NCBI GenBank assembly: GCA_000091205.1
Contig: AP006485.2
Direction: 5' to 3' (one strand)
DNA from: Cyanidioschyzon merolae
Taxonomy: Eukaryota
Length of the DNA: 64,000 nt
Below the pieces are notes generated by a model. The model saw only the letters and a list, made by a program, of their open reading frames with translations, was not told the origin of the DNA and searched no databases. Shown here in pieces: positions 4,196-52,461 of the stretch; the stretch's first letter is position 1; the number at the start of each line of letters is the position of its first letter. The position numbers and the translations under genes are program-made.

Positions 4196-6205
4196 ATGCA
4201 TCGACGCTGCGGCGCGATGGACGGCATCGCTCGAGAAGCGTCAGTTAAGCGCCGGCTAAGTCCACTGGGCGCTCTGGACCTGAACGCTTCTATGGTCTTT
4301 GTGCCGATCACATCGGTTCAAGAGGCAAAGCATATTTTTCGTCATAGAAATAGCAGATCAACGAGTCAACTTTGTGCTTGTCGGTTCGCCTTGGCTCGGG
4401 CTTTCGTGTCTACGCAAGATAAAACGTGCTTTGTACCTGGTAGACCGTGTGTGCTCAAGGAAAAGTCAGCGCACACCGGCACTCTGAGACGCTCTCGGTT
4501 ACAGCGGGGGTTCTGTTGCGCTCAGGTCGAAGCAACAACGGTACATTCTGATTCGATGAGGAAAACGAACTCAACTTCAGTCATGGGGAACGGCGCTGTC
4601 GGGGCGCTGACGGGGAGAGTTCTCGTTCCCGAGAAGCTCGACAGCGACGGCGTAGCGCTGCTCGAGAGAGCCGGTCTGGAAGTAGTGTGCAAGTACGACT
4701 TGACAGAAGATGAGTTAAGCGCTGTTCTTGGTGACTTTGACGCACTGATCGTTCGATCCGGTACCAAAGTGACGCGTTCCCTTCTCGAGAAAGCGAACGC
4801 TACGCGTCTGCGTGTCATCGGACGGGCCGGCGTTGGTGTCGATAATATCGACCTGGCGGCAGCCTCCGAACGGGGAATCGTTGTTGTGAACGCACCTACG
4901 GGCAACTGTATTGCTGCTGCTGAGCATACGGTTGCGTTGCTTCTGGCGCTGGCCCGCAACATTGCCGCCGCGGACGCTACAATCAAAGGTGATCAGTGGA
5001 ATCGGAATAAATTTGTAGGCGTTTCCCTTGTGGATAAGACCCTTGGTGTATGTGGTTTTGGAAGAATTGGTCGAGAGGTTGCACGTCGCTGTCGGGCGCT
5101 GGGAATGCGTATATTGGCCTACGATCCCTACTGTGCTGTCGAGGTGACACGCGCCGTCGGTGCCGAGCTCTGCAGCTCCCTCGATGAACTTCTTCGTGTT
5201 TCAGACTTTGTTACCGTGCACATGCCCCTGACAGAGTCCACGGAAAATATGATCGATCGGAATGCGCTCTCTAAGTGCAAGGATGGAGTGCGGATTCTGA
5301 ACGTCGCCCGCGGCGGCATCGTCGACGAGGTCGCTCTGTTGGAGGCGCTGGAATCCGGCAAAGTCGCAGGAGCCGCGTTAGACGTTTTTGTTCAGGAGCC
5401 TCCACACAAATATCCCGGAAGTCCATCAGAGAAGGTTGCGAAACATCCCCGGGTGGTCGCGACACCGCACCTGGGAGCCAGCACTGTCGAGGCACAACTC
5501 GATGTGGCCCTTGAAGTAGCCGAGGCGGTCATCACAGCGCTGCGGGGTGACTTTGCGCCAACAACAGTGAATGCTCCATCGCTTCCTTCGGAGATGCTTT
5601 CGACTTTGAAGCCAGTTGCCGAGCTCGCAAAGGACTTGGGAAAGTTGGCGGCTGCCTTTAGTGACCGCATTCACGAAGTGAGCATCACATACGCCTTTCG
5701 TGATGCTGAGAAGCGGAATGCCACTCGCTTTCTGCGCGCTTCTGTGCTTCAAGGCCTCCTTGGGCAGACCTCGGCAGTGCCGATCAATTACGTGAACGCA
5801 GATGTGGTTGCGGAGCGTCGAGGCATCACCTGGACGGAGGTTTTACTCTCCAGCATCGAAACCAGCGATGCAGAGTTTCTGCGTTTGGAAGTGAATCGCC
5901 ATGTCTACGAAGGCCGTGTAACTTCGGGGATGCCTCGGGTAACGCGCATCGACAATTTCGATATTGACATTTGCCTGAACGGCCGTGTACTCGCGTACGA
6001 ACAAATCGATCGACCGGGCATGATCGGTCTCGTAGGCTCTATTCTAGGTGATGCTGGAGTGAACATCAGCTTCATGACACTAGGTCGCGATGACAAAGTC
6101 GGACGGGCGCTGGTCCTCCTCGGGGTGGACTCAGAGCCGGAACCGTCAACGCTCGATGCCATCGCATCCAAAATTGGGTATCGTCCGCGAATGATGTTCT
6201 TCTGA
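4196..6205 (+). CDS. PHGDH: D-3-phosphoglycerate dehydrogenase (long form with C-terminal ASB/ACT regions); start codon uncertain
   Basis: The conserved region starts at RVLVPEKLDSDGVALLERAG. Also present: the NAD-binding motif GVCGFGRIGREVARR, VHMPLTESTENMI, RGGIVDE, and ATPHLGASTVEAQ. The track start at 4157 is GTG. In-frame ATGs lie at 4196, 4217, 4292, 4556 and 4583. A long S/T/R-rich leader before the core could be a transit peptide. Confidence 0.8.
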   Translation: MHRRCGAMDGIAREASVKRRLSPLGALDLNASMVFVPITSVQEAKHIFRHRNSRSTSQLCACRFALARAFVSTQDKTCFVPGRPCVLKEKSAHTGTLRRSRLQRGFCCAQVEATTVHSDSMRKTNSTSVMGNGAVGALTGRVLVPEKLDSDGVALLERAGLEVVCKYDLTEDELSAVLGDFDALIVRSGTKVTRSLLEKANATRLRVIGRAGVGVDNIDLAAASERGIVVVNAPTGNCIAAAEHTVALLLALARNIAAADATIKGDQWNRNKFVGVSLVDKTLGVCGFGRIGREVARRCRALGMRILAYDPYCAVEVTRAVGAELCSSLDELLRVSDFVTVHMPLTESTENMIDRNALSKCKDGVRILNVARGGIVDEVALLEALESGKVAGAALDVFVQEPPHKYPGSPSEKVAKHPRVVATPHLGASTVEAQLDVALEVAEAVITALRGDFAPTTVNAPSLPSEMLSTLKPVAELAKDLGKLAAAFSDRIHEVSITYAFRDAEKRNATRFLRASVLQGLLGQTSAVPINYVNADVVAERRGITWTEVLLSSIETSDAEFLRLEVNRHVYEGRVTSGMPRVTRIDNFDIDICLNGRVLAYEQIDRPGMIGLVGSILGDAGVNISFMTLGRDDKVGRALVLLGVDSEPEPSTLDAIASKIGYRPRMMFF

Positions 6206-40587: not shown

Positions 40588-41811
40588 CTAACTCCGTCGG
40601 AGTATTGACGTAACGGCGGCTACGCAAGCGTCTTGGTTCTCGTTACGATAGGGCTGACCCCCGTGCACCATTGCAGTGAAAGGGCTCGTCTTGGAGACCA
40701 GTTCAGGGCACCACGCTCGACTTCCATAGTTCTGTATCCAGTCCGTGTACACGAACAGATGCGCATAGACGCGCCACCAGCTATCGTGTGCCGTCGCCAT
40801 ACGCCAGCGCTGCATGGCACTATCGAAGGGCTCATCAGGAAAGCGAGTCGCCATCCCTCGCAGCACAGTATGGGTGAAGCACGGATCACCCAGTCGATAC
40901 ACAGCATTGCCGTTCAGATGGTGATCATGAGGCCAGGTCACGCACCAACGATGTCGCTGGTAGAGGGGCGCACTCCCCATGACCCAGAAAGGGTGCCGCT
41001 TCGCCACAGATCGATGAAGCATAGGTAGAAAGCACGGACGAAGCGCGTATACGTCGGGTTCAAGCCAAACAAAGTAGTCGTACTGAAGCGCGAGCCCCAT
41101 CGGGTGGATCCTGTGCTCCTCGTGGCGACTCGTGCTCCCGGGTACGTGGTATAGGTCAAAAAGCGCATAGAATAGATTCGCTGTCCCACGAGAAATATGC
41201 CGCCTACGCCAGCGACTGAAATAGTAGGCGTCGGCGTAGTCGCTGAGGTTCGCGAACCGAAGCAGCACCCGCGAGAAAACTTGCTCTGAACGAAACGTCT
41301 CGTTTCGGACAGAGTCCAAGACTAGTTGCACTTGTTCCCGCTGGAGGCAATTAGTCTCTGCTCGACTACAGAACAGCAGCAGGTCGGACGCATAAGCGGT
41401 TTCCGCGCAAGCGCTCGCTTGGCGAAGCCACTGCCGCAGCGTCTCCAGTACCTGTGGTGCCTGCTTGGGCGGGTACGGCACGACGAGCAGCACGTTCGGC
41501 CGCGACGACCTGTTCGTCGTCAAGAGTGTTGTGCGCGGAACACAGCGTGCATAGAGCGCACCGCTCTGGTTATCTAGCCAGGGAGCATCGCTGCCGGAGG
41601 CCGTCGTGCGCGCGCCCCAGTCTCCCATACGAAGACGTGGAAACGTGCCGTCATACCAGCACAGCACTTGTACAACGAGCAGAAACCAGACAATCACTCC
41701 CCATAGACTACCTATGAACTGGGTCAAATGTCGTCGCTCAGTAGTCCGTCGGAAGCGTGACTCTTTGGCGCTGCGAAGGGACGCTCGCGACAACGCCGGT
41801 GCTCGACGCAT
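40588..41811 (-). CDS. Type II membrane protein, possible glycosyltransferase-like lumenal domain (family not recognised)
   Basis: The track start at 41883 is TTG; the first ATG is at 41811. A basic N-terminus is followed by one hydrophobic span (FIGSLWGVIVWFLLVVQVLCW). A long Trp/His/Tyr-rich domain follows (YDYFVWLEPDVYALRPCFLP...HLNGNAVYRLGDP). The function call is weak. Confidence 0.4.
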   Translation of the reverse strand: MRRAPALSRASLRSAKESRFRRTTERRHLTQFIGSLWGVIVWFLLVVQVLCWYDGTFPRLRMGDWGARTTASGSDAPWLDNQSGALYARCVPRTTLLTTNRSSRPNVLLVVPYPPKQAPQVLETLRQWLRQASACAETAYASDLLLFCSRAETNCLQREQVQLVLDSVRNETFRSEQVFSRVLLRFANLSDYADAYYFSRWRRRHISRGTANLFYALFDLYHVPGSTSRHEEHRIHPMGLALQYDYFVWLEPDVYALRPCFLPMLHRSVAKRHPFWVMGSAPLYQRHRWCVTWPHDHHLNGNAVYRLGDPCFTHTVLRGMATRFPDEPFDSAMQRWRMATAHDSWWRVYAHLFVYTDWIQNYGSRAWCPELVSKTSPFTAMVHGGQPYRNENQDACVAAVTSILRRS

Positions 41812-42073
41812 GCACAGGACGCAGCGCGCGTTCCCCAGAGACAAGACACACAAACTGTCCACGGGACGAAAGAAGTTAGACAATATTTTTATAGAGTCTC
41901 AAGAAGCGCAAGGATCGTGTCATGGTGTCCGCCTGCTCCCTTGGGTAACCGTAGACACGCGCGAGCGCTGAGCGATAACGGTGCGCAGGGAGCGCCGGCC
42001 GGCAGGCAGCATATTCGCCCATCAGCGTTCGACAACGCCCGAGCACGTTGATTGCTTCTTCTGTGCGGTGTCT

Positions 42074-43507
42074 ATGTTCGTGGAGCCGGAGTTTCTTTGC
42101 TCTGGTCGTATCTGGAGCTGGGATTCGGCGACAGCGTCAGTGGGAAGACCACGAAGCTGTTGCCGGTGGCTCACTTCACGGAAACAGAGCCAGTTCGAGG
42201 GTGTCGGTTGCCAGCCGTGTCGAACGCGGTCTCGTAGGGTGTTCCACGACTCGCGGTGCTGCTGCTGCTGCTGCTGGGCCGTGGGGTTGCGACCAGGCTA
42301 CCGAAAGTGGTCTGATCCGGATCGTCAGCACAGTGCTCGCCTCGAACGTCGTTTCGAGTTGGTTGCTGTTGTGGATAAGGACGCGGGTAGTTCGGAGCGT
42401 CCAGTACGCTGGAACCTCAGCGGTATTCCGCCACCACCGCCAGCCGCTCGCCAATGGATTGCGCAACCAAAACCATCAAGTGCTGAAAGCGACTACATCA
42501 ATCGGGCACCGCTCTTTTCTAAAGTACTTCGCACGCACTGTTTCGCGCTACCGTGGTCTGCTCTCGTGGAGCTGCGTGCGCGTGCCGCCGACGACATCGA
42601 CATCGACAACGCGGCACGCCTGGCAGCAACGGCTTCGACCAGTGTGCATGCTACCCTGTACCAGGGCAGTGTACCAACTGAGCCATATCCGCGGACTTTT
42701 ACAAGAAGCGGGCTCGTGTTGGAGGCCGGTAACGCCGGCACCCTCAAAAGGCGCCGAAACGCCCCGCAAGTGCCGGCACTGGTGACCGCGGAGCGCCAAC
42801 TGCCGCTTGGCGTGCTCATTGATCCTAACGCTGATGATCCTGCTATTGCAGTTTTCATAGCAGCTCGGCAACCGCGCTTTGGTAAGGAGCAAAATCGTCA
42901 AAAGCCGGCAGTGATCGCTGTAGCTGCGGTTGCCGCATCACCTCTTGGTATCGCGAATGGCGTCCTTGATGCTACCGTCGATGCACTCGTGGACATCGTT
43001 CGACGTCTGGATCCCTCGTTGCCGTCGACATCGGTTCATGAGCGAGCGATTCGAAGGTCTATGGTTGCAGCGATAGGGCCGAACCCTGCGACTGCAGATT
43101 ACGGGTTCGTCACGGTTCGTTCGGATGTGCTGAATGCGATCTTCTTGCCGTGGGAGGATCGCCCGCATGTCGGCCTGTCACGCCGCTGCTATTTCGTTCA
43201 CGATATTCAAAACGATGTGCATTCAGTGATCTGTCGGAGCCGACGTACGCGTCTATCCTTTACGTTTCTGGCGCAGCGTCTGACGGGGCGTCACCGGAGC
43301 CTGGCGAACCCGTTACCAGCGACAAGCGAGTCGCATGGTATCCAGTTCCCGTTGCAAGAGTGGTATCTTCGACTCGCGCCGCTTGTTTACGAACGATTGC
43401 GCTGCATTGGCGTTGGACAAGTTGAGCTGACGCGCGTGCTTTTGCCGCGCGTGCCGATCACATCTCGCGAGGATACGCGTCATTTTTCCTACATCGTTTT
43501 GGAGTGA
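42074..43507 (+). CDS. Hypothetical protein (long ORF, no recognised domain)
   Basis: The 508-codon ORF 41981..43507 starts at GTG in the track; the first ATG is at 42074. Support is ORF length only, in a GC-rich region where long spurious ORFs also occur. Confidence 0.3.
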   Translation: MFVEPEFLCSGRIWSWDSATASVGRPRSCCRWLTSRKQSQFEGVGCQPCRTRSRRVFHDSRCCCCCCWAVGLRPGYRKWSDPDRQHSARLERRFELVAVVDKDAGSSERPVRWNLSGIPPPPPAARQWIAQPKPSSAESDYINRAPLFSKVLRTHCFALPWSALVELRARAADDIDIDNAARLAATASTSVHATLYQGSVPTEPYPRTFTRSGLVLEAGNAGTLKRRRNAPQVPALVTAERQLPLGVLIDPNADDPAIAVFIAARQPRFGKEQNRQKPAVIAVAAVAASPLGIANGVLDATVDALVDIVRRLDPSLPSTSVHERAIRRSMVAAIGPNPATADYGFVTVRSDVLNAIFLPWEDRPHVGLSRRCYFVHDIQNDVHSVICRSRRTRLSFTFLAQRLTGRHRSLANPLPATSESHGIQFPLQEWYLRLAPLVYERLRCIGVGQVELTRVLLPRVPITSREDTRHFSYIVLE

Positions 43508-44674
43508 TTGAGAGTGTGGGCGTTGTCTGATGCAATGCAGACCGGGGGTTTCCCCAGCCCTAGTGTGCAACGCGTTCCAAAAGACGTGTTCTGCTTGATG
43601 GATACTGAGCGTTTTGATCAGCGGCCGACTTGTTGCATCGTACGCGAGTCCCGATGCCAGAGCGGAGGCAGCCTTTTCCGCCAGCCTGTGTCAATGGAGA
43701 TGTACATTCGCGGGCTCGCGTCTGCTGACCTTGATTCCAGTTTAGTGCGCTTTCGGCATGAGTCTGTGAGCAATTCATCACCGGACGAGATCAAGTGTTT
43801 CCCCTGCCTATCCAGCGCTGCGAGTGATTGCGTGCGCATGTTGCCTCGCGATAGAACAATTGGCAACTTGAAGAACGTCTGCTTCGAGCTTGCGACATGG
43901 AAGGGAAACGCAAGAATCGGGGCCTGTACATATGAATGGGTTTTCATTTTGATTACTGTACGAAGCCTTGCACGAGGGCATCGCTCATCTTCATCATGAT
44001 AGCAATCACGTAACGTTTCCCAGTGACACAGCGTCTAAGGAGCCACTCGGAAAAATCGGTCTAGCATCGTAGAACTAGGCGTGAATCCGTAAATCCTAAC
44101 TGCCGCACTTGGATTGTCAAGGCTGTCTGTGTATAAAAATAAGGTCCGAACATCAACGAAAAGCAGGTGTAGAACGAGCAGTCCCGTTTTCTCGTTTTAC
44201 CGGACCCGCGCGCATGGCGGATGTGCTTCTGCAGCGTGTTTGCGTTCGGTGCCGTTGGCGCGCGTTGCGAGGCTTGCGTTCTTATTTTATGAAAGCTGGT
44301 GGTTCTCAGGTTATTGTGGATACGTTTGTGGTGGCTTGTCTCGGTCTTGCGGGAGCCATTATTGGTCTGGAGTACGCTTTGGACGGTGACGAAGCCGCCT
44401 ACAGCGAACTCACCAACGGCAAGGACGAGGTTGCCGGCGATGCCGTTCGGGCACACGTACGTGCAACGTGGCGCAGCGCTGCACTTTCGCGGGTAGCGCA
44501 AGTGCCTGGCGGGACCTGAAACTGGTTTTTGACGAGCACGTCGCACCGGAGCTACCCAAGATGTTCCGTTTGATCGGACAGCAGTGGCTGACCCCGAAAA
44601 CTGCCTGGTTGTGGTCCGTGGTAAGCAGCTGGTGGGCAATCGCCTGAAAGGATGCGTGGTTCGTGCAGCGAGGC

Positions 44675-44678
44675 AAAA
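44675..44678 (-). terminator. Pol III T4 terminator run just downstream of the tRNA-Met
   Basis: The minus strand reads ...CTGCCGCA gc TTTT gcc immediately after the discriminator base. Confidence 0.5.
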
Positions 44679-44680
44679 GC

Positions 44681-44803
44681 TGCGGCAGGTGAGACTCGAA
44701 CTCACGACCTTAGGATAGCTTTCTTGGGCTCGTGTTATGAGACCTACGCGCTGTGGCACTGAAACTGAACTGGACAAAGTTTAACCAACTGCGCTACTGC
44801 CGC
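44681..44803 (-). tRNA. trnM-CAU: Elongator tRNA-Met (anticodon CAT) gene interrupted by two short introns: about 30 nt in the D-loop and 19 nt in the anticodon loop
   Basis: Minus strand reads GCGGCAG TA GCGC AGTTGGTTA [AACTTTGTCCAGTTCAGTTTCAGTGCCACA] GCGC G TAGGT CTCATAA [CACGAGCCCAAGAAAGCTA] TCCTA AGGTC GTGAG TTCGAGT CTCAC CTGCCGC A. The acceptor stem is 7/7 paired and the T-arm is perfect. The spliced product is 73 nt and near-identical in its arms to plant-type elongator tRNA-Met. The introns map to about 44752-44781 and 44716-44734. Confidence 0.8.
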
Positions 44804-46750
44804 TGATGGGAAATGCTTGCGATAATCTAGATATAAAGCCCATTGCGCCCAGGTTCGTTGCACCGACGGCGCGTGCGTTTGTTCGTGCTCGATTCTGTGC
44901 GCTAGGTTTCACCAACCGTTTCAGCATGATGTCCCTTGTATGGTGCAACTTGATTGAATTCGCACCACTTTGGACAGGTTCGGCCTCGGTGCGCACCTTG
45001 TTGCGCAGATGGGATGCTTGCTTCATGACGTCAGTGCTATGATCCCCTGTCGTGAGGTACAGATGCGCATGAAGCGATAGCGCCCTTTTGCGGGTGCACG
45101 GCTGGTGTGCCGGAATGTGCACTCATCTGGTCAGCGTAAATTTATCATGCGGCATGCTTGCACCCAAGTCGACGTATACACGGACGAGCACGACCTTGCG
45201 TCAGTTATTTTTGGGGTACGGAGTAGGGCGCTGCATGATCGTGTAGACGAACCGGGGGATTCCCGATTGCGCCATGGTTATCGGTATCCGCGAAAGCGTT
45301 CATCATTCTGCACGGGACCGCTGCGTTTCAGGAGCCAATGCCGATAACTTCTTTTCGGAATTAGGGTTTGTTCGTCCAATTTTCCTGGTGCCGAGCGCCT
45401 GCCGTGTGCGCCCACTAGGTTGCCACTAGCGTCGATATGGTTATCGCATGGCAACGGAGCGGCTTTTCCATACCATGATTGAAGAAAGCTCGAGGCATCA
45501 GCCTGCGTGTACACGCCCGCGGGCTCGCGGAACGCGTCTCTCACGGACGACTCGGATATGCACTGGCACCGGAGCTGCTGTATTTGCAGCTGCATACCAA
45601 ATCGATGCTCCTTCGCCTACGAGCTGGTGCGTCACATAAAAAGCAAACGAAATTCCTAGGTACCGTCATATCTTCGGGACGGCACAGCGTTGCAGGTTGG
45701 TCGAGCAGTCGCCCAAACTTTGGTTTGAGGCGACGCGGGTCGACGGACAACATAATGGTAACGCCCGACATGCGGCGGTTCCTGGAGGGTTTCGCCGTTT
45801 TCCTGGACGGCGTAACAGGGAGCACTCGTGATTCAAGCTGACACCGAGACAGCGGCCCCAGGCGGTCACTTTTAGACGTCCATGGTAAGTGCCATAAAAC
45901 AGTGCGAGGCTCTCACGCAGATCCGTGTCGATGATGCTACCAGATACGTTTGCTCATCAGCTTGGCCGCTCTTTCCGACGTTTCCGTGGCCGTATCCACC
46001 TATTCGATGTCCATTGGCAAGCACATTTGGTCATAGAGCACTCGCTAGCAAACAGCATAGCACAGCACTGCAGATCCTCGGCAGTTCCTGGTGCACCGCT
46101 CACACCGGTGACGCATCGCGAGTGCGCACCGCATCCTGTGCCTCGTGCTGAACTAGGTCCGTTTGATCGCATGGCATTCGCGAAAGACGCATGCAGATGG
46201 TGTGTATCGCGTTTGGCAGAGGGCTATGTTATTCAAACCAGTGAACCTGAAACAGTCTGTCATTGAGATGTTTATCGACAAACGCGTGGATGCGGCATCC
46301 TATCGTTCGCGGAGCGTCCTGTCATAGTGCCAGCGAAGAGTCGGAACTCTTACGCGAGCAGAGCTGCATTCGTTTTATTTTGCAAGCAGCCCCGGACCGT
46401 GCAGCTGCTTGCATTCTTCTGCAGATTTACATCCATCGAGGAGCGTCAAATCGTTCCGGCTGAAGCGCACAGAAACGTCGCGCGAAAGCATGTATCCGAG
46501 GATGTCGGGTGACTCCAACGGCGAACAACATCCCAGCCATTGCCGCCTACGATACGATTTGGGTAAGGCGCTTATGGAAACAGGTCGGGCCGATGCAGCC
46601 CATTTATGCACAGGCACTTGCTCTTCGTTGTATTGACCTATAGTGCAGTCCACTGCTATTGCAATGTTCATGTACACATGCTCTAGATTATCTACCGAGA
46701 TCATGCGGGTAGGCCGCAGCGTAGTCTCCAGAAAGCTCATGGAAACAGTT

Positions 46751-47875
46751 TCATGGATGAATAGTATCTTTGAATTCAAAGAACGAGTCATGCATGCGAA
46801 TGAAAGAGTACTCCTCGCATGACCCACAACACCAGTATAAATTAGGTTCTTTGTGAAAGATAGCGAACCCGGCGTGCATAAAACCTCGGAAAAACTCATC
46901 CAATTCTGGGATAGAGGCGAAACCCGCGTGCACTTCGATAAGGACTTGATTCACGTGCCGCAGCGCGTGCCAGGTTCTCAAGGCATATTGCTCTTCAGAG
47001 CTGAGTTCACGTTGGCTCCGTCCTTGGCGAAGGAGCTTGTCGGCTGCCCGGAACGCTCCCAAGAAAGAGGTGAACTCACCACCCTCGATATCGATCTTGA
47101 GCACCTCGACGACGTTTGGCAGCTCCAGGTGACCCAATCCAGACATGATCTCCGCCAGCGAATTGTTGCTCTCAGCCGGGCCAAGCGGCCGGCGAAAAAA
47201 ACGAACGCGTTCCAGAAAGCTCTCGGAGTGCATCGCAGATGGTGGCGATGATGTTGGGTCAAAGACGAAAAAATCGCAGTCCGGCAAGCGTTCATGAAGC
47301 TTCGTTTCGAAACTGAAATCGTCGTTGCTACCAAAACTGTAAACAATGCAGCGATACGGGAGCCTGAGCTGCTCACGAAACAGCCGTCCCCGGTTCAGGA
47401 TAGCAGGTGGGTCGCACACCCATTTGCCACCGTCTCCGTTGTTACCGATCCGTTCCTCTAAGGTACAGCCGATATCCGGTTCCCAGTTATTGTAGAAAAA
47501 AACCGACGGGTTTGGTTCGAGGGTAACGGTCTGGCGCTTTCGCTGACGTTGTGACCGAATCCTCCGTTGGGCCCAGAGCGCGTCCGACTCGCACCAGAAG
47601 CCGAGCGACTCTTTCAGTGCTCGCGTGTCCTTCGAAGTCACTGGTAGGGTCCGGTCCCAAATCTCCGTCAGGGTTTTCGCGTTGCGCAAAGAGCTCCCAC
47701 GACGAAGAGCCCTCGACACGGAGCGAACGCAGCTGTCATCCACGGCGGGAAGATCCGCGCGCTGGACACCACTAGAGCGTCCGTTGAGAACACTAGTAGC
47801 GCGGTATATTACGATAAGAGCATAAATAAGAAAAGTCAAAGCCCCTGAAGCGATGCACGGTTTTCGCCACGTCAT
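46751..47875 (-). CDS. Type II membrane protein with an FkbM/METTL24-like methyltransferase domain
   Basis: ORF 46751..48115. The likely start is ATG 47875 (MTWRKPCIASGALTFLIYALIVIY, a signal anchor), with alternative ATGs at 47989, 48028 and 48115. Domain motifs: CIVYSFGSNDDFSFETKLHERLPDCDFFVFDPT and VEVLKIDIEGGEFTSF. Confidence 0.55.
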   Translation of the reverse strand: MTWRKPCIASGALTFLIYALIVIYRATSVLNGRSSGVQRADLPAVDDSCVRSVSRALRRGSSLRNAKTLTEIWDRTLPVTSKDTRALKESLGFWCESDALWAQRRIRSQRQRKRQTVTLEPNPSVFFYNNWEPDIGCTLEERIGNNGDGGKWVCDPPAILNRGRLFREQLRLPYRCIVYSFGSNDDFSFETKLHERLPDCDFFVFDPTSSPPSAMHSESFLERVRFFRRPLGPAESNNSLAEIMSGLGHLELPNVVEVLKIDIEGGEFTSFLGAFRAADKLLRQGRSQRELSSEEQYALRTWHALRHVNQVLIEVHAGFASIPELDEFFRGFMHAGFAIFHKEPNLYWCCGSCEEYSFIRMHDSFFEFKDTIHP

Positions 47876-48024
47876 GCCGGCCACTGAAAACAAACGTCTT
47901 TCAAAAGAAAAACGTTGCCGCCAACGGTGTACAGTAGTGACGGGAAACGCGCCGTAAGCAAATCGTCTCCAGCTGAGGTGCAGACGCATCCCAGTCTTTT
48001 TCGACCGTCCACCTACTACGTCTT

Positions 48025-50149
48025 TCATTTTCTTCTCATATAATTCCACTTTGAGAGGTCGCCCCACAGGTTCTCTCGTGTCGAATCTGGAGGTCTTTTC
48101 TCCAGCACCGCACATCTCCTGATATTGATAGCGACATTAAAGTCTCGGTTCACAAACTCCATGCGTTTCTTGCCATCTTTGGTTGTACTTACTAATACAA
48201 GTAGCCCACGAACGTTCGCCCTCCTTTCCATTTGCTCCTCCGTCAGCGGTCCGTACTTTGCTATTTCGTCGGGGCTCCTCTGGCACTTTTCCATCTCGAT
48301 CCTTTGAAGTGTACAACACAGTTCATGGTGTGTATACGATGTTCGGAACTCATCTACAGGTATTGTAACTAACCGGTCTGCACACCCCTTGTACGTTCTT
48401 GTCGTTGGAGCTGGTGTACACTCTTTTTCAGACGCCTAGCGCCCTGCTCCGTATGCTACTACCAGCCTTTGACTTTCATCCTCTTTGAAGGCACTCAGCT
48501 GATTGAAAAAGTTCGCGAACGCACACTGCTTGCCAACGTATAGATTCATACGCAATCGAGACCACCGGGGCTTTGTATACTCTTTCCACAGTGCCTCCCA
48601 ATGACCAACGCGAACTTTCATGAACTCCCGAAAAGCTTGAAAGTCGGCTCCGCGGCTCGTCACCTCGCCCAAAGCTTCCAGGTGCTCTTTCATTCCTGCA
48701 TTCCATGTCTCGATTTCCTTCCACGCATTCTTTATACCGGATTCTCGATAGTATCTCGCTCTCGAGAACCTCAAAAGACGCATGTCTTTCTGAATGAAGT
48801 TGCCGTCTGGACCATCTTCCGCACGCCTGGGTACAGCGATGGCTGTGACATTCGTATTCCCAGGGTCCGCGCCCACGACAAAGTCGTTATACTTCCTTTT
48901 CTGTGTGGCACAATCCGCCTCCTTCTCATCTTCATACCTCGTCACGTCAACGACAACGTCGTCATCCTGCACTTCCTGTGTCGCAGGATCCGTCTCTTTG
49001 TTTTCTTCATGCTTCGTCATGGGCGAAGCCGAAGGCTCGATAGGACGATACGCCCTCAAGCGCTTGCAGTCTACACAAATGGATACTCCATCGGTTTCGA
49101 TCATCCCCGTGAATACCCTCTGCTTGCTAATTTTGAGACGTTTGAAACTGAAGATATTCTTCCAGTACGTCTCCCGGTTTTCACCGGAGAATTCCTCCCT
49201 GCTGGCATTGAACTCGGGACTGATCTACTTCATGATGCCGTAGACGACTCTGGAGCCGATATAAACAAAATGGGGCTGTATGTTCCATAACGGGATGACG
49301 TAGAAGCGCTTCACCATTAGGAAAGCCCTCGGTCTCTCGCGCTCTTCATTTTTTCCTCACTCAGCTTCATCTCCGTCTTGCGTTCGAGTTTTCGGTCCAG
49401 AAACACGAAATACCGCAGAATGAGGCGATAGTGTCTTTCCATATCTTTTTTCAACTCTGGTACCTTTTCTGCTGGATTCGCCAGCCCAAAAACTGCATGG
49501 TGCTCTTGTATTGCCGCACGGATTACAGAAGCTTCATTCGTGCTCCTGCGTGGCGCCTTCTTGTCACCAAATTCGACCTCATCTTCATGCTTACGATCAT
49601 TCGTGATGCCTTGAAAATCGCACATTTTCCATCGCGAGATAGACCCGGGTAGAGTGCAAACACGGCGCGTATCATGAAACGTTCGAGGTTCACTGTCAAA
49701 TGGTGTTTCAGGTCCGTGATTTACTTCATCGCCCCGTATATGTAGATATTTCCGTCACCGCTGTATCGATTACCCTCGAAGGGGAATTCCACGAAGATTT
49801 CGTGGAGAGCATGCACTAGCTCATTTTCCCTCCGCATACCCCCTGTACCAAGCATCAGTTGACGAATAAACGTCTTGTCGAAAAACTCGTCCGAAACCTC
49901 GACTCTTTCCATGTGCGTCACATCGCGATGCATCGCCCTCACCAAATGCATTAGCCCTGACGATGCGTTTATAATACTTTTGGAGTACGAATCGACACAT
50001 GGTCTCTGATAGCGTCTCGCAAATTTTGCTTGTACTGATCCTTGGTATGTCAAAGAAGACCAGCTTTCACCACCATCTCGTCGCACAGGTGTCTTTTTCG
50101 CCGCCTTCGACGTTGGACCTCCCCTTTCGGTCCTTTTTCTTCTCTTCAT
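48025..50149 (-). pseudogene. Fanzor/TnpB-like (OMEGA-family) RuvC nuclease gene, disrupted by 2 in-frame TAGs and 2 frame changes
   Basis: The fragments are 49721..50149, 49317..49625, 48436..49104 and 48025..48294. The last two share a frame across TAG 48436-48438. RuvC-I: [15 protein letters not shown] (Asp codon 48865-48867). RuvC-II: IPVDEFRTSYTHHELCC (Glu codon 48349-48351). Zn-ribbon remnant: ...EKCQRS.... RuvC-III: VNRDFNVAINIRRC (Asp codon 48142-48144). N-terminus: MKRRKRTERGGPTSKAAKKTPVRR, NLS-like. Confidence 0.7.
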
Positions 50150-51243
50150 TTTCTTCTGGACTCGGTACTGTTTTTTATTTTTTTCTGGCAGCCTGCGACA
50201 CTGGGCCTCCAGGATTATGTACTTGCTTTTTCATAACTTTGCTTTTTTAGTTTTTTTAAGAAGAAAGCCCTTTGAACGCTTCTGGTACACACTGCGAAAA
50301 AATTTGAGTAGACTTGTTTGAAGTTTGAAACACAAATGCAACCGAAAAACTGTACTTGGCTATGAACTCAACGAAAATACAACTTTTACATCAGAGCGAC
50401 ACGCTAGAGATCAAGATCACGTTTCCAGTCATCGTCGGCGATATGCGTCATGTCTCAAGCCTGTCTGATCTCCCAGCTGCGCTCGCTGTGCGCGATGCGT
50501 GCACCGCGCGAGACGCCTCACCGATCGATGAAGGACACGTGTCCGACACCCCGCCGTGGCACATGCGTGTTCGCATCGCACTGCAGCTGAAATAAAGTCT
50601 CGTAGATCGGAAACTCACGTGGAACGATCTCTTGCTATAGGCTATGTCGCTGATGCACATCGCAGTACGGACCTGACATACAAGGAGATGCAGGGGCCTG
50701 GCACGATTGCCCGCGATGCTTCTATCAAAGGCGTAGTCACTGTAGCACCTTACGCTTGTGCGAGTGAGGTATGCATCACCCTACTGAATAGGAGTTTCGT
50801 TCGTTTTATTGATCGTGAAAAAACTGTGTGCCGTAGTCTTCCCGACTACGGATATACGTTTATTCCCGTTTCTTGCAGTCCATTCCGCTCAGACGCTGGA
50901 ATGAGAAACTGGTTTGAATTGTGTTTCTATCCGGCGCCAGGCCAGCAAGTGTCGAGCAACCCACCGCAAATTCGTTCTGATCGATGGAATGTGCTTACGG
51001 CTCAATGATCCGAGAATTCACGACGAGTACCGACACCCGGGAAATCTGCCGCCATTGCGCACCAGCTCTGCGATTTCCACCAGTCACATCGCGTGCCTCA
51101 TCTCCGACATTCTGCTTTTCCGACGTTCCATTGTGCCCTGCGACTGCCGTGAGCGTTCGAAACAGCGCCCAAACCGCTGGATCGGGCGTAGCACAGAGAC
51201 CGACAGACATACCCCCTACTGGATTGGAGCCGGGAGCCATCGC

Positions 51244-52461
51244 TCACACGTAGCACTGCTCATTGCCGATCTCATCTGAATACTCCGTGACCACATTATA
51301 GTGATGGAAAGCGGCAACGTCTAAGGCCAGTGAAGAAGAACGTGCAACGAATAGGTCGCAAAACGTGATTCCCCGCAGCATGCGATGTTGGACGATTAGA
51401 CAATTCTCGGCGATGTATAAGTGACTACATAACCGAGTCGTAGCCAGGGCTAATAGTACCGACAGCCCCGCTGCTTTTTTTCTATGAACAGCAGTTTGCC
51501 CCCGTTTTGAATTATCCATATACAAATCTACCAAGTCTACCGAATAAAGTCTCATAAATTGAGACGGCAAAATGCCCCTGGTGGAAGAAACTTTCTCGTT
51601 GCAGTGCGAAATCGATCGTGCGCTGTTCAAGGTGCTGCAGCTACAAGTAGTAGCCTGCCATCTTCTTCGTTCACTCGTGTCGCTTCACCGCAATTTGTAT
51701 CAACCGTTCGAAAACCTCTCATCCAGCGGCTTCTTTGGAGGTACGTCATGGATATCATCCGGGCTGAAATACATGAAAGACGGGACGCTCATGTAGAGAG
51801 CTTTTGAAACTTGCTGTGGTCGGTGCAAGTCGTTCAAGGAACGGACTACGAGAGGGGTACCTCATACGTCTGCTGTCCGCACTATGTCTGGTCTGGACAA
51901 GTAAAGGCGTTTTGCTCCGAAGCCAGCCAGCCAGCCAGCCAGCATAAAGTCATCTCGCGACCTTTCACCGATCTACAATGTACAATCCACGTTTTGAATA
52001 CCTGTGCGAAAAACAAACAATTACACGTTTAGCGTGTTGATACATGTTCTTGCAAGTGCGCTGCTCTGAGTAAAAAGTCTCGTGATCGGTAGGAAGCATT
52101 CAAGATTTTTAACTTCTGAACCGCAACCTCGTGAGAAATTGCCGAGGCGCGGGTACGGCACCCTCCACTAGCGGGAATACGGTCTGTCTGGGAACCTCGT
52201 TCCTCTCTGGTACCGCAGGTGTGCAGTAGTGCATCCCGGATGCGTCCTGATCCTTCGCCCAAAAGACCTGCCGAGTGTGGCACTGCCGATCGCGAGTCTA
52301 AAACTGCTGTCGCTAAGAGCGATACGCAGGGTTCGCTCAGCAAGCACTGGTTGCCCCAGCAAGCGCTTGGGCTGGTATGCACGCCGCTGCAGTGACCCCA
52401 CGTTTGTCTCTTGGTGCTTTTCGTCATGGCTTTTATTCCGAATGATTGAGCATTCACTCAA
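51244..52461 (-). mobile_element. Degenerate Ty1/copia-like pol remnant (RT C-terminal part and RNase H region); may extend to about 53180
   Basis: ORF 51244..51630 reads ...DLYMDNSKRGQTAVHRKK...ALDVAAFHHYNVVTEYSDEIG, resembling copia D..DRKSTSGY / SKKQ..VA and KHIDV.YHF.RE.V..G.I. ORF 52168..52461 ends ...HLRYQRGTRFPDRPY, resembling vLRYLkGT.d.GL.Y. Frames are broken in several places. Confidence 0.35.

Follow-up and report, generated by a model that had tools for sequence, protein, structure and literature searches.

A two-intron elongator tRNA-Met(CAU) gene from nuclear DNA of Cyanidioschyzon merolae and its counterparts in related red algae

The tRNA-Met(CAU) gene and its identity

The stretch of DNA analysed here (hereafter the window; 64 kb) is nuclear DNA of Cyanidioschyzon merolae, as three of its ORF products are fully identical to proteins of strain 10D of this alga, namely BAM79074 (ascorbate peroxidase), BAM79079 (kinesin) and BAM79081 (mitochondrial carrier). 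The minus strand of the window carries, at 44681..44803, a complete nuclear elongator tRNA-Met(CAU) gene (eMet) of 123 nt that is interrupted by two introns of 30 and 19 nt, an assignment based on the Rfam family RF00005, the cloverleaf of the spliced product and syntenic orthologues. The RF00005 match covers exactly these coordinates (48.4 bits against a gathering threshold of 29 bits, E value 2.7e-7 for the whole 64-kb window) and spans model positions 1–71 of 71, with two insertions, one in the D-loop and the other in the anticodon loop. No other tRNA match was returned by Rfam in the 64-kb window at E values up to 1. The mature tRNA body comprises 74 nt including the discriminator A (123 − 30 − 19), rather than the 73 nt given in a preliminary description of the locus, and CCA is not encoded in the gene.

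Read along the minus strand, the 5′ part of the gene is GCGGCAG TA GCGC AGTTGGTTA, followed by intron 1 (aactttgtccagttcagtttcagtgccaca) and by GCGC G TAGGT CTCATA; the 3′ part consists of intron 2 (acacgagcccaagaaagct) and A TCCTA AGGTC GTGAG TTCGAGT CTCAC CTGCCGC A, after which the strand continues with GC TTTT. Exon 1 (44782..44803) comprises tRNA positions 1–21, that is, the 5′ strand of the acceptor stem, U8 and A9, the 5′ strand of the D-stem and the D-loop AGTTGGTTA. Exon 2 (44736..44751; positions 22–37) supplies the 3′ strand of the D-stem, G26, the 5′ strand of the anticodon stem and the loop sequence CUCAUA, within which the anticodon CAT lies at 44739–44737. Exon 3 (44681..44716; positions 38–73) provides A38, the 3′ strand of the anticodon stem, the variable loop AGGTC, the T-arm, the 3′ strand of the acceptor stem and the discriminator A.

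The unconstrained MFE fold of the spliced 74-nt product is a cloverleaf (−27.1 kcal/mol), and the conserved tRNA bases U8, A14, G18, G19, A21, U33, T54, T55 and C56 are all present. After intron removal, the anticodon CAU occupies positions 34–36 of a 7-nt loop, CUCAUAA, that includes U33. Eukaryotic initiator tRNAs are marked by A1:U72, A54, A60 and three G:C pairs at 29–31:39–41. The gene has G1:C72, its T-loop reads TTCGAGT (T54, T60), and its anticodon stem (UAGGU/UCCUA) contains just two G:C pairs and mismatches U31 with U39; the initiator marks are missing, indicating that it encodes the elongator species. The full-length RF00005 match with two insertions, the cloverleaf obtained on their removal and the lack of initiator marks uphold the central claim of the preliminary description, namely that of a two-intron elongator tRNA-Met(CAU) gene. 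The arm-for-arm likeness to plant eMet that it noted is probably correct.

Other forms of tRNA gene disruption were considered. tRNA genes that are circularly permuted, with the 3′ half lying upstream of the 5′ half, were reportedly found in C. merolae by Soma and colleagues in 2007; the exons of the present gene are collinear, with model positions 1–71 in order. Self-splicing group I and group II introns of tRNA genes are hundreds of bases long and have a catalytic core, and introns of these types were rejected here, the two introns being 30 and 19 nt long. No Rfam intron model matched anywhere in the 64-kb window.

Synteny and conservation in related lineages

The adjacent protein-coding gene (46751–48115, minus strand) encodes a Methyltransf_22 protein, and the tRNA gene lies downstream of it. 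Homologues of this protein were found in a JGI metagenome (98 % identity), in an uncultured relative (54 % identity, P0038) and in the P0037 cluster (55 % identity), which represents Cyanidiococcus yangmingshanensis. The loci compared were L001, from a near-identical strain; L002–L004, from the uncultured relative; and L009 and L007, from Cyanidiococcus yangmingshanensis (GCA_026122185.1) and a Logan contig. Gene order is shared, with the methyltransferase gene followed by the tRNA gene, a small gene on the opposite strand and homologues of the ORFs at 41981–43507 and 40588–41883. In every syntenic contig, the tRNA gene is on the same strand as, and about 1.6–1.9 kb 3′ of, the methyltransferase gene.

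Several features of this neighbourhood were recorded alongside. The ORFs at 41981–43507 (plus strand) and 40588–41883 (minus strand) are 64–66 % and 53–54 % identical, respectively, to syntenic loci of the Cyanidiococcus clade and are real conserved genes; the former is conserved only from residue 129 onwards, so the GTG listed as its start probably lies well upstream of the true one. The small gene (44289–44647, plus strand) is convergent with the tRNA gene and ends approximately 35 nt from its 3′ end. Homologues of the small gene lie at L002:13235–13753 (minus strand) and L009:12818–13177 (minus strand), and the protein shares 75 % identity (45 aa) and 42 % identity (78 aa) with the L002 and L009 proteins. 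In the relatives, it is a single continuous ORF; the C. merolae 10D copy has its two conserved parts in different frames, the N-terminal one (MKAGGSQVIVDTFVV...) stopping at 44517 and the C-terminal one (SASAWRDLKLVFDEHVAPELPK...) running from 44495 to a stop at 44645–44647, which could reflect a frameshift, an assembly error or a pseudogene. On the other side of the tRNA gene, positions 48001–52000 of the window have a G+C content of 0.49 vs approximately 0.55 elsewhere, with a strongly negative GC skew (−0.18) at 48–50 kb, and the ORF at 48436–49104 (minus strand) lies within this low-G+C region.

Orthologues of the tRNA gene are located at 4674–4796 in L001, 13082–13204 in L002, 13087–13209 in both L003 and L004, 12673–12795 in L009 and 11616–11738 in L007. 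All copies are 123 nt long and align without gaps, with the 30-nt and 19-nt insertions at identical sites; the comparison with cyanidiophyte relatives that the preliminary description had proposed thus places both introns at the same sites, and with the same lengths, in Cyanidiococcus and in the uncultured relative. In the more distant lineages, 72–73 of the 74 exon positions are identical to those of C. merolae, compared with 13–16 of the 30 positions of intron 1 and 7–12 of the 19 positions of intron 2. Exon 1 is invariant in all lineages except for a T16→C change in Cyanidiococcus, exon 2 is invariant at all 16 nt and exon 3 shows a single substitution in the relatives (T→C, variable loop). 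Leaving the splice-motif bases apart, the introns are 37–63 % identical overall. The bases that are kept in intron 1 are the last 8 nt, GTGCCAC(A/G), together with positions +2 and +3, while those kept in intron 2 are C(+2), G(+13) and AAG at −5 to −3. On this comparison, conserved exons set against drifting introns that retain their splice bases are what a working gene whose spacers are spliced out shows, and not what a pseudogene shows.

The synteny stops short of Cyanidium, as far as the sequence of one locus indicates. In Cyanidium caldarium, the locus of the methyltransferase homologue (L008; JANCYW010000017.1:71252–92472) has a wholly different gene neighbourhood, and this stretch returned neither a tRNA match nor any eMet exon when three mismatches were allowed. 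A search with a 27-mer of exon 3 and a gapped pattern of the D-arm and anticodon arm gave no exact matches in a metagenome contig set that lacked the JGI contigs, a result that is uninformative on distribution. Our literature search returned no description of ectopic tRNA introns in Cyanidiococcus, nor of the intron conservation and resolved junctions given here.

The flanks of the tRNA gene are otherwise hard to align, yet GGGnTTTATA(T/A) is kept at −34 to −37 in all lineages (L001–L004, L007 and L009). In C. merolae, the element reads GGGCTTTATAT (44831..44841, minus strand), with TTTATA starting at −34. It is probably an upstream RNA polymerase III promoter, of which the conserved GGG prefix may form part, and probably corresponds to the TFIIIC-independent polymerase III promoter proposed for C. 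merolae. A T4 run at 44675..44678 (minus strand), 2 nt past the discriminator, is the probable polymerase III terminator; the preliminary description had reported this run, and it was found at 44678–44675. Both elements fit the signals described for the tRNA genes of this alga, most of which have a TATA-like element 5′ and a T-stretch 3′, while homologues of TFIIIC were not found (PMC3728597). The orthologues have T5 in place of the T4 of C. merolae.

Splice junctions and alternative readings

Both archaeal and eukaryotic tRNA-splicing endonucleases recognise a 4-bp helix (H) with flanking 3-nt bulges and cut after the second bulge base, and this substrate geometry was used in examining the junctions. 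Intron 1 (44752..44781, minus strand), an inserted block in the Rfam alignment, separates A21 from G22 at the D-loop's 3′ edge. Its length and approximate coordinates agree with those first proposed for a D-loop intron, and the orthologues settle the junction at 21/22. The exon strand of helix H is formed by U17, G18, G19 and U20 (44784..44787), which pair with GCCA at intron positions −6 to −3 (44754..44757); the 3′ splice site follows 2 nt later in the RNA, after 44752. At this register, all four pairs form in all lineages (U17:A, G18:C, G19:C and U20:G), whereas the 20a/21 register allows one of the four. The 5′ bulge is 3 nt long and consists of U20a, A21 and, beyond the cut, the first intron base (A, 44781). 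The inner part of the intron (44758..44780) is closed by a helix h′, ACU (44780–44778) with AGU (44760–44758), which measures 3–5 bp depending on the lineage. The 3′ site is not in a canonical 3-nt bulge but in a small internal loop that separates H from the D-stem, and the intron 1 motif, as modelled here, is a relaxed bulge-helix-bulge (BHB)-like motif of the HBh′ type.

This motif is seldom reached by chance, as only 66 of 20,000 shuffles of intron 1 gave all four H pairs plus an h′ of 3 bp or more, and RNAalifold recovered both H and h′ de novo. In Cyanidiococcus (L009), unconstrained MFE folding of the D-arm precursor yields this BHB fold (−13.2 kcal/mol). Near the 3′ site, alternative pairings exist between G15 and C(−2), which is invariant, and between U16 and A(−1), which covaries. 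Two compensatory changes were seen (precursor numbering), one at 16:52, where U16:A(−1) becomes C16:G(−1) in Cyanidiococcus, and the other at 26:44, the third pair of h′, where U:A becomes A:U. With about two independent events in five distinct sequences, this covariation is supportive but thin. Folded without constraint, the precursor from C. merolae favours G15:C and U16:A in its MFE structure, with U17 bulged; this fold was set aside in favour of the U17–U20 helix, as the C16 variant of Cyanidiococcus disrupts that pairing.

Intron 2 (44717..44735, minus strand; also an Rfam inserted block) occupies the canonical 37/38 position. The preliminary description had its length and site right but had placed it one base away, at 44734–44716, and it is the 44735–44717 placement that keeps A38 and the C32:G(−3) pair. 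This pair (44741:44719) and U33:A(−4) (44740:44720) are invariant in the five distinct sequences, and the C(+2):G(+13) pair is likewise conserved across lineages. Position 37/38 together with a pair between base 32 and intron base −3 defines a canonical eukaryotic tRNA intron, and intron 2 has both. The motif comprises two of the four H pairs and one to three h′ pairs, is unfavourable on its own (+0.6 to +5.1 kcal/mol) and is matched by approximately 2.6 % of intron 2 shuffles, so the case for this motif is made by its invariance across lineages and not by its strength. It resembles, by analogy, the relaxed or 'no H' types described at 37/38 in C. merolae, where the motif of intron 2 of tRNA-Phe is given as +1.15 kcal/mol (PMC3728597). 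RNAalifold also proposed a pairing in the anticodon region (60–64 with 94–98), which conflicts with the cloverleaf and was discarded as a folding artefact. The search for BHB motifs that the preliminary description had called for ended differently for the two introns, with a complete helix H at the splice register of intron 1 and only two H pairs at intron 2.

In C. merolae alone, each junction could be moved by one base, to 20a/21 in the D-loop or to 38/39 in the anticodon loop, with an identical 74-nt product. Position 20/21 has moreover been given for D-loop introns in Chondrus and for the permuted type I junction in C. merolae. We nevertheless consider such a shift in an otherwise real gene unlikely. 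A junction at 20a/21 would forfeit three of the four H pairs formed at 21/22, and one at 38/39 loses C32:G(−3). The relatives also speak against it: the last base of intron 1 is G in Cyanidiococcus, so that A21 is kept only by the 21/22 junction, and the first base of intron 2 is T in the relatives, so that only 37/38 retains A38. With shifted junctions, the conserved A21 and A38 would be replaced in Cyanidiococcus by G21 and U38.

The remaining readings question the gene itself, and each can draw on some feature of the locus. A decaying tRNA pseudogene or tRNA-derived repeat with two insertions, not expressed as a functional tRNA, could account for the weak intron 2 motif and for the failure of ARAGORN at default settings to report any tRNA gene in the window. 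It is very improbable, however, given that the exons are nearly unchanged in lineages with only 54 % identity in the neighbouring protein and 37–63 % in the insertions, that the insertion lengths and splice-motif bases are exactly kept, and that the TATA-like element, the T-run and the synteny are conserved. The gene is also the sole tRNA gene in 64 kb, and the published census requires an eMet gene and reports duplicates only for Gly(CCC) (PMC3728597). When ARAGORN was relaxed (-i0,60 -ps90), it placed a tRNA-Leu(cag), i(38,36), on exactly this interval, with one intron of 36 nt, bearing out the earlier expectation that standard finders would miss or mis-call the gene. A single-intron tRNA of another identity, such as this tRNA-Leu(CAG), can nonetheless be dismissed with near certainty: the call appears only at the lowered score threshold, alongside four chance calls in the window, the covariance model needs two insertions and places CAU at 34–36, and a single intron cannot explain two diverged blocks that flank an invariant 16-nt middle exon. 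A protein-coding reading is equally implausible. The 238-aa ORF that had been reported over the tRNA (44061..44777, minus strand) does exist and, in tblastn, its frame is weakly similar to the DNA of the relatives, but this similarity stems from the tRNA exons and from the conserved small gene on the plus strand, to which the ORF is antisense. The ORF is not a gene, and a tRNA match with an E value of 2.7e-7 in the window argues against a coincidental tRNA-like fold.

The two-intron eMet gene with junctions at 21/22 and 37/38 is therefore the reading that we retain. Its detection still calls for caution. Rfam cmscan, with permissive filters and E values up to 1, did not report the eMet copies of L009 and L007, although the Cyanidiococcus gene differs from the L002 copy, which scores 48.4 bits, only at one exon base and in the intron sequences. 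Whether a standard pipeline finds a two-intron tRNA gene is consequently a matter of filter luck.

Processing and relation to known disrupted tRNA genes

The nuclear tRNA genes that C. merolae has were surveyed with SPLITS/SPLITSX by Soma et al. 2013 (Sci Rep 3:2321; PMC3728597), and the following figures come from that paper. There are 43 nuclear tRNA genes, of which 27 contain introns, nine having two introns and three having three. The 42 introns (11–69 bp) lie at 37/38 (n=17), in the D-loop (n=14), in the D-stem (n=5) and, for the rest, in the variable arm and T-arm, and their junctions show BHB, relaxed BHB-like and 'no H' motifs. The anticodon table includes both an initiator and an elongator tRNA-Met, and encoding by two genes is stated only for tRNA-Gly(CCC) (PMC3728597). 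Intron annotation for C. merolae tRNAs is also provided by PlantRNA 2.0 (doi 10.1101/2021.12.21.473619). The stated completeness of the 43-gene set (PMC3728597) and the functional appearance of the eMet gene described here link this gene to the elongator tRNA-Met of that table, and the locus is, with high confidence, one of the published 'highly disrupted' tRNA genes of C. merolae 10D, namely its nuclear eMet(CAU) gene.

The gene thus belongs to a class that is already known, multiple and ectopic tRNA introns having been published for C. merolae in 2013 (PMC3728597); the preliminary description had itself named C. merolae as a known case of such introns. It is like the other members in intron length, in the D-loop and 37/38 sites, in having two introns, in its BHB-type motifs and in its TATA-like element and T-run, and none of the features tested sets it apart; the RT-PCR work in that paper concerned tRNA-Asn, Phe, Ile and Gly and not Met (PMC3728597). 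There, splicing was ordered, with stable ectopic motifs cut before the 37/38 intron. The endonuclease of C. merolae is described in the same source as Sen2/Sen34/Sen54 without a recognisable Sen15, encoded by CMN231C (cmSen2), CMH233C (cmSen34) and CMK254C (cmSen54) (PMC3728597); all three genes lie outside the window.

We infer the following course of processing. Starting from the TATA-like element upstream, RNA polymerase III would make a 123-nt precursor that ends at the T-run. The tRNA-splicing endonuclease (cmSen2, cmSen34 and cmSen54) would excise the 30-nt intron between A21 and G22, and the same enzyme the 19-nt intron between A37 and A38, after which the exons would be ligated and CCA added to give the tRNA body of 74 nt. 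Recognition of the D-loop intron would be by the BHB-like motif, that is, the helix of U17–U20 with intron positions −6 to −3 and the UA|A bulge at the 5′ site, closed by the inner helix of 3–5 bp, with the 3′ site in the small internal loop adjoining the D-stem. The anticodon intron would be recognised through its relaxed motif (C32:G(−3) and U33:A(−4)), as is usual for eukaryotic 37/38 introns. If the energy rule proposed for the other C. merolae tRNAs applies (PMC3728597), cleavage would begin at the stable D-loop motif and finish with the 37/38 intron.

Comparison with other lineages puts the two introns in different company. According to a 2026 review, which also restates the findings on C. 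merolae and Chondrus, a 37/38 intron in eMet is typical of primary-plastid lineages, i.e. land plants, green algae and red algae (PMC13578239). Intron 2 has this site in common with plant eMet, together with the C32:G(−3) pair; land-plant eMet has the 37/38 intron alone, whereas that of C. merolae has a second intron in the D-arm (PMC13578239). The eMet of another red alga, Chondrus crispus, also has two introns, one canonical and one in the D-loop or T-loop, and that report describes Chondrus D-loop introns at 20/21, in contrast to the 21/22 favoured in C. merolae, with splicing validated for other Chondrus tRNAs (doi 10.1101/2021.12.21.473619). Intron 1 is reminiscent of the BHB introns of archaea in its non-canonical site, its 4-bp helix, its 3-nt bulge and the cut after the second bulge base; it differs in belonging to a eukaryotic nuclear gene, in having only one of two canonical bulges and in its presumed processing by a eukaryotic Sen complex, albeit of unusual composition. 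Multiple-intron tRNAs with BHB motifs are said to occur in Thermoproteales and other archaea (Marck and Grosjean in 2003, Sugahara and colleagues in 2007–2009).

The 'ruler' model of the eukaryotic tRNA-splicing endonuclease is challenged when nuclear tRNA genes have introns that are ectopic and multiple, and such introns connect eukaryotic with archaeal tRNA processing. That point was made for C. merolae in 2013, and the eMet gene brings no new principle. What the present results add to the known class is modest: the introns are conserved in Cyanidiococcus, and the junctions are resolved. They provide comparative proof that, in another genus, both eMet introns keep their site and length despite drift in sequence; they resolve two junctions that were ambiguous by one base in C. 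merolae alone; and they come with a practical warning, as ARAGORN misses or miscalls the gene and cmscan misses the Cyanidiococcus orthologue. Within the family, the sequence comparison dates the two-intron layout at least to the split between Cyanidioschyzon and Cyanidiococcus, with intron lengths and splice-motif bases kept since. A wider claim, that the 21/22 plus 37/38 layout of eMet is old and orthologous rather than a peculiarity of C. merolae, is one that we advance only tentatively and with some doubt; since the eMet of Chondrus crispus also has two introns, the layout may have originated in a red-algal ancestor.
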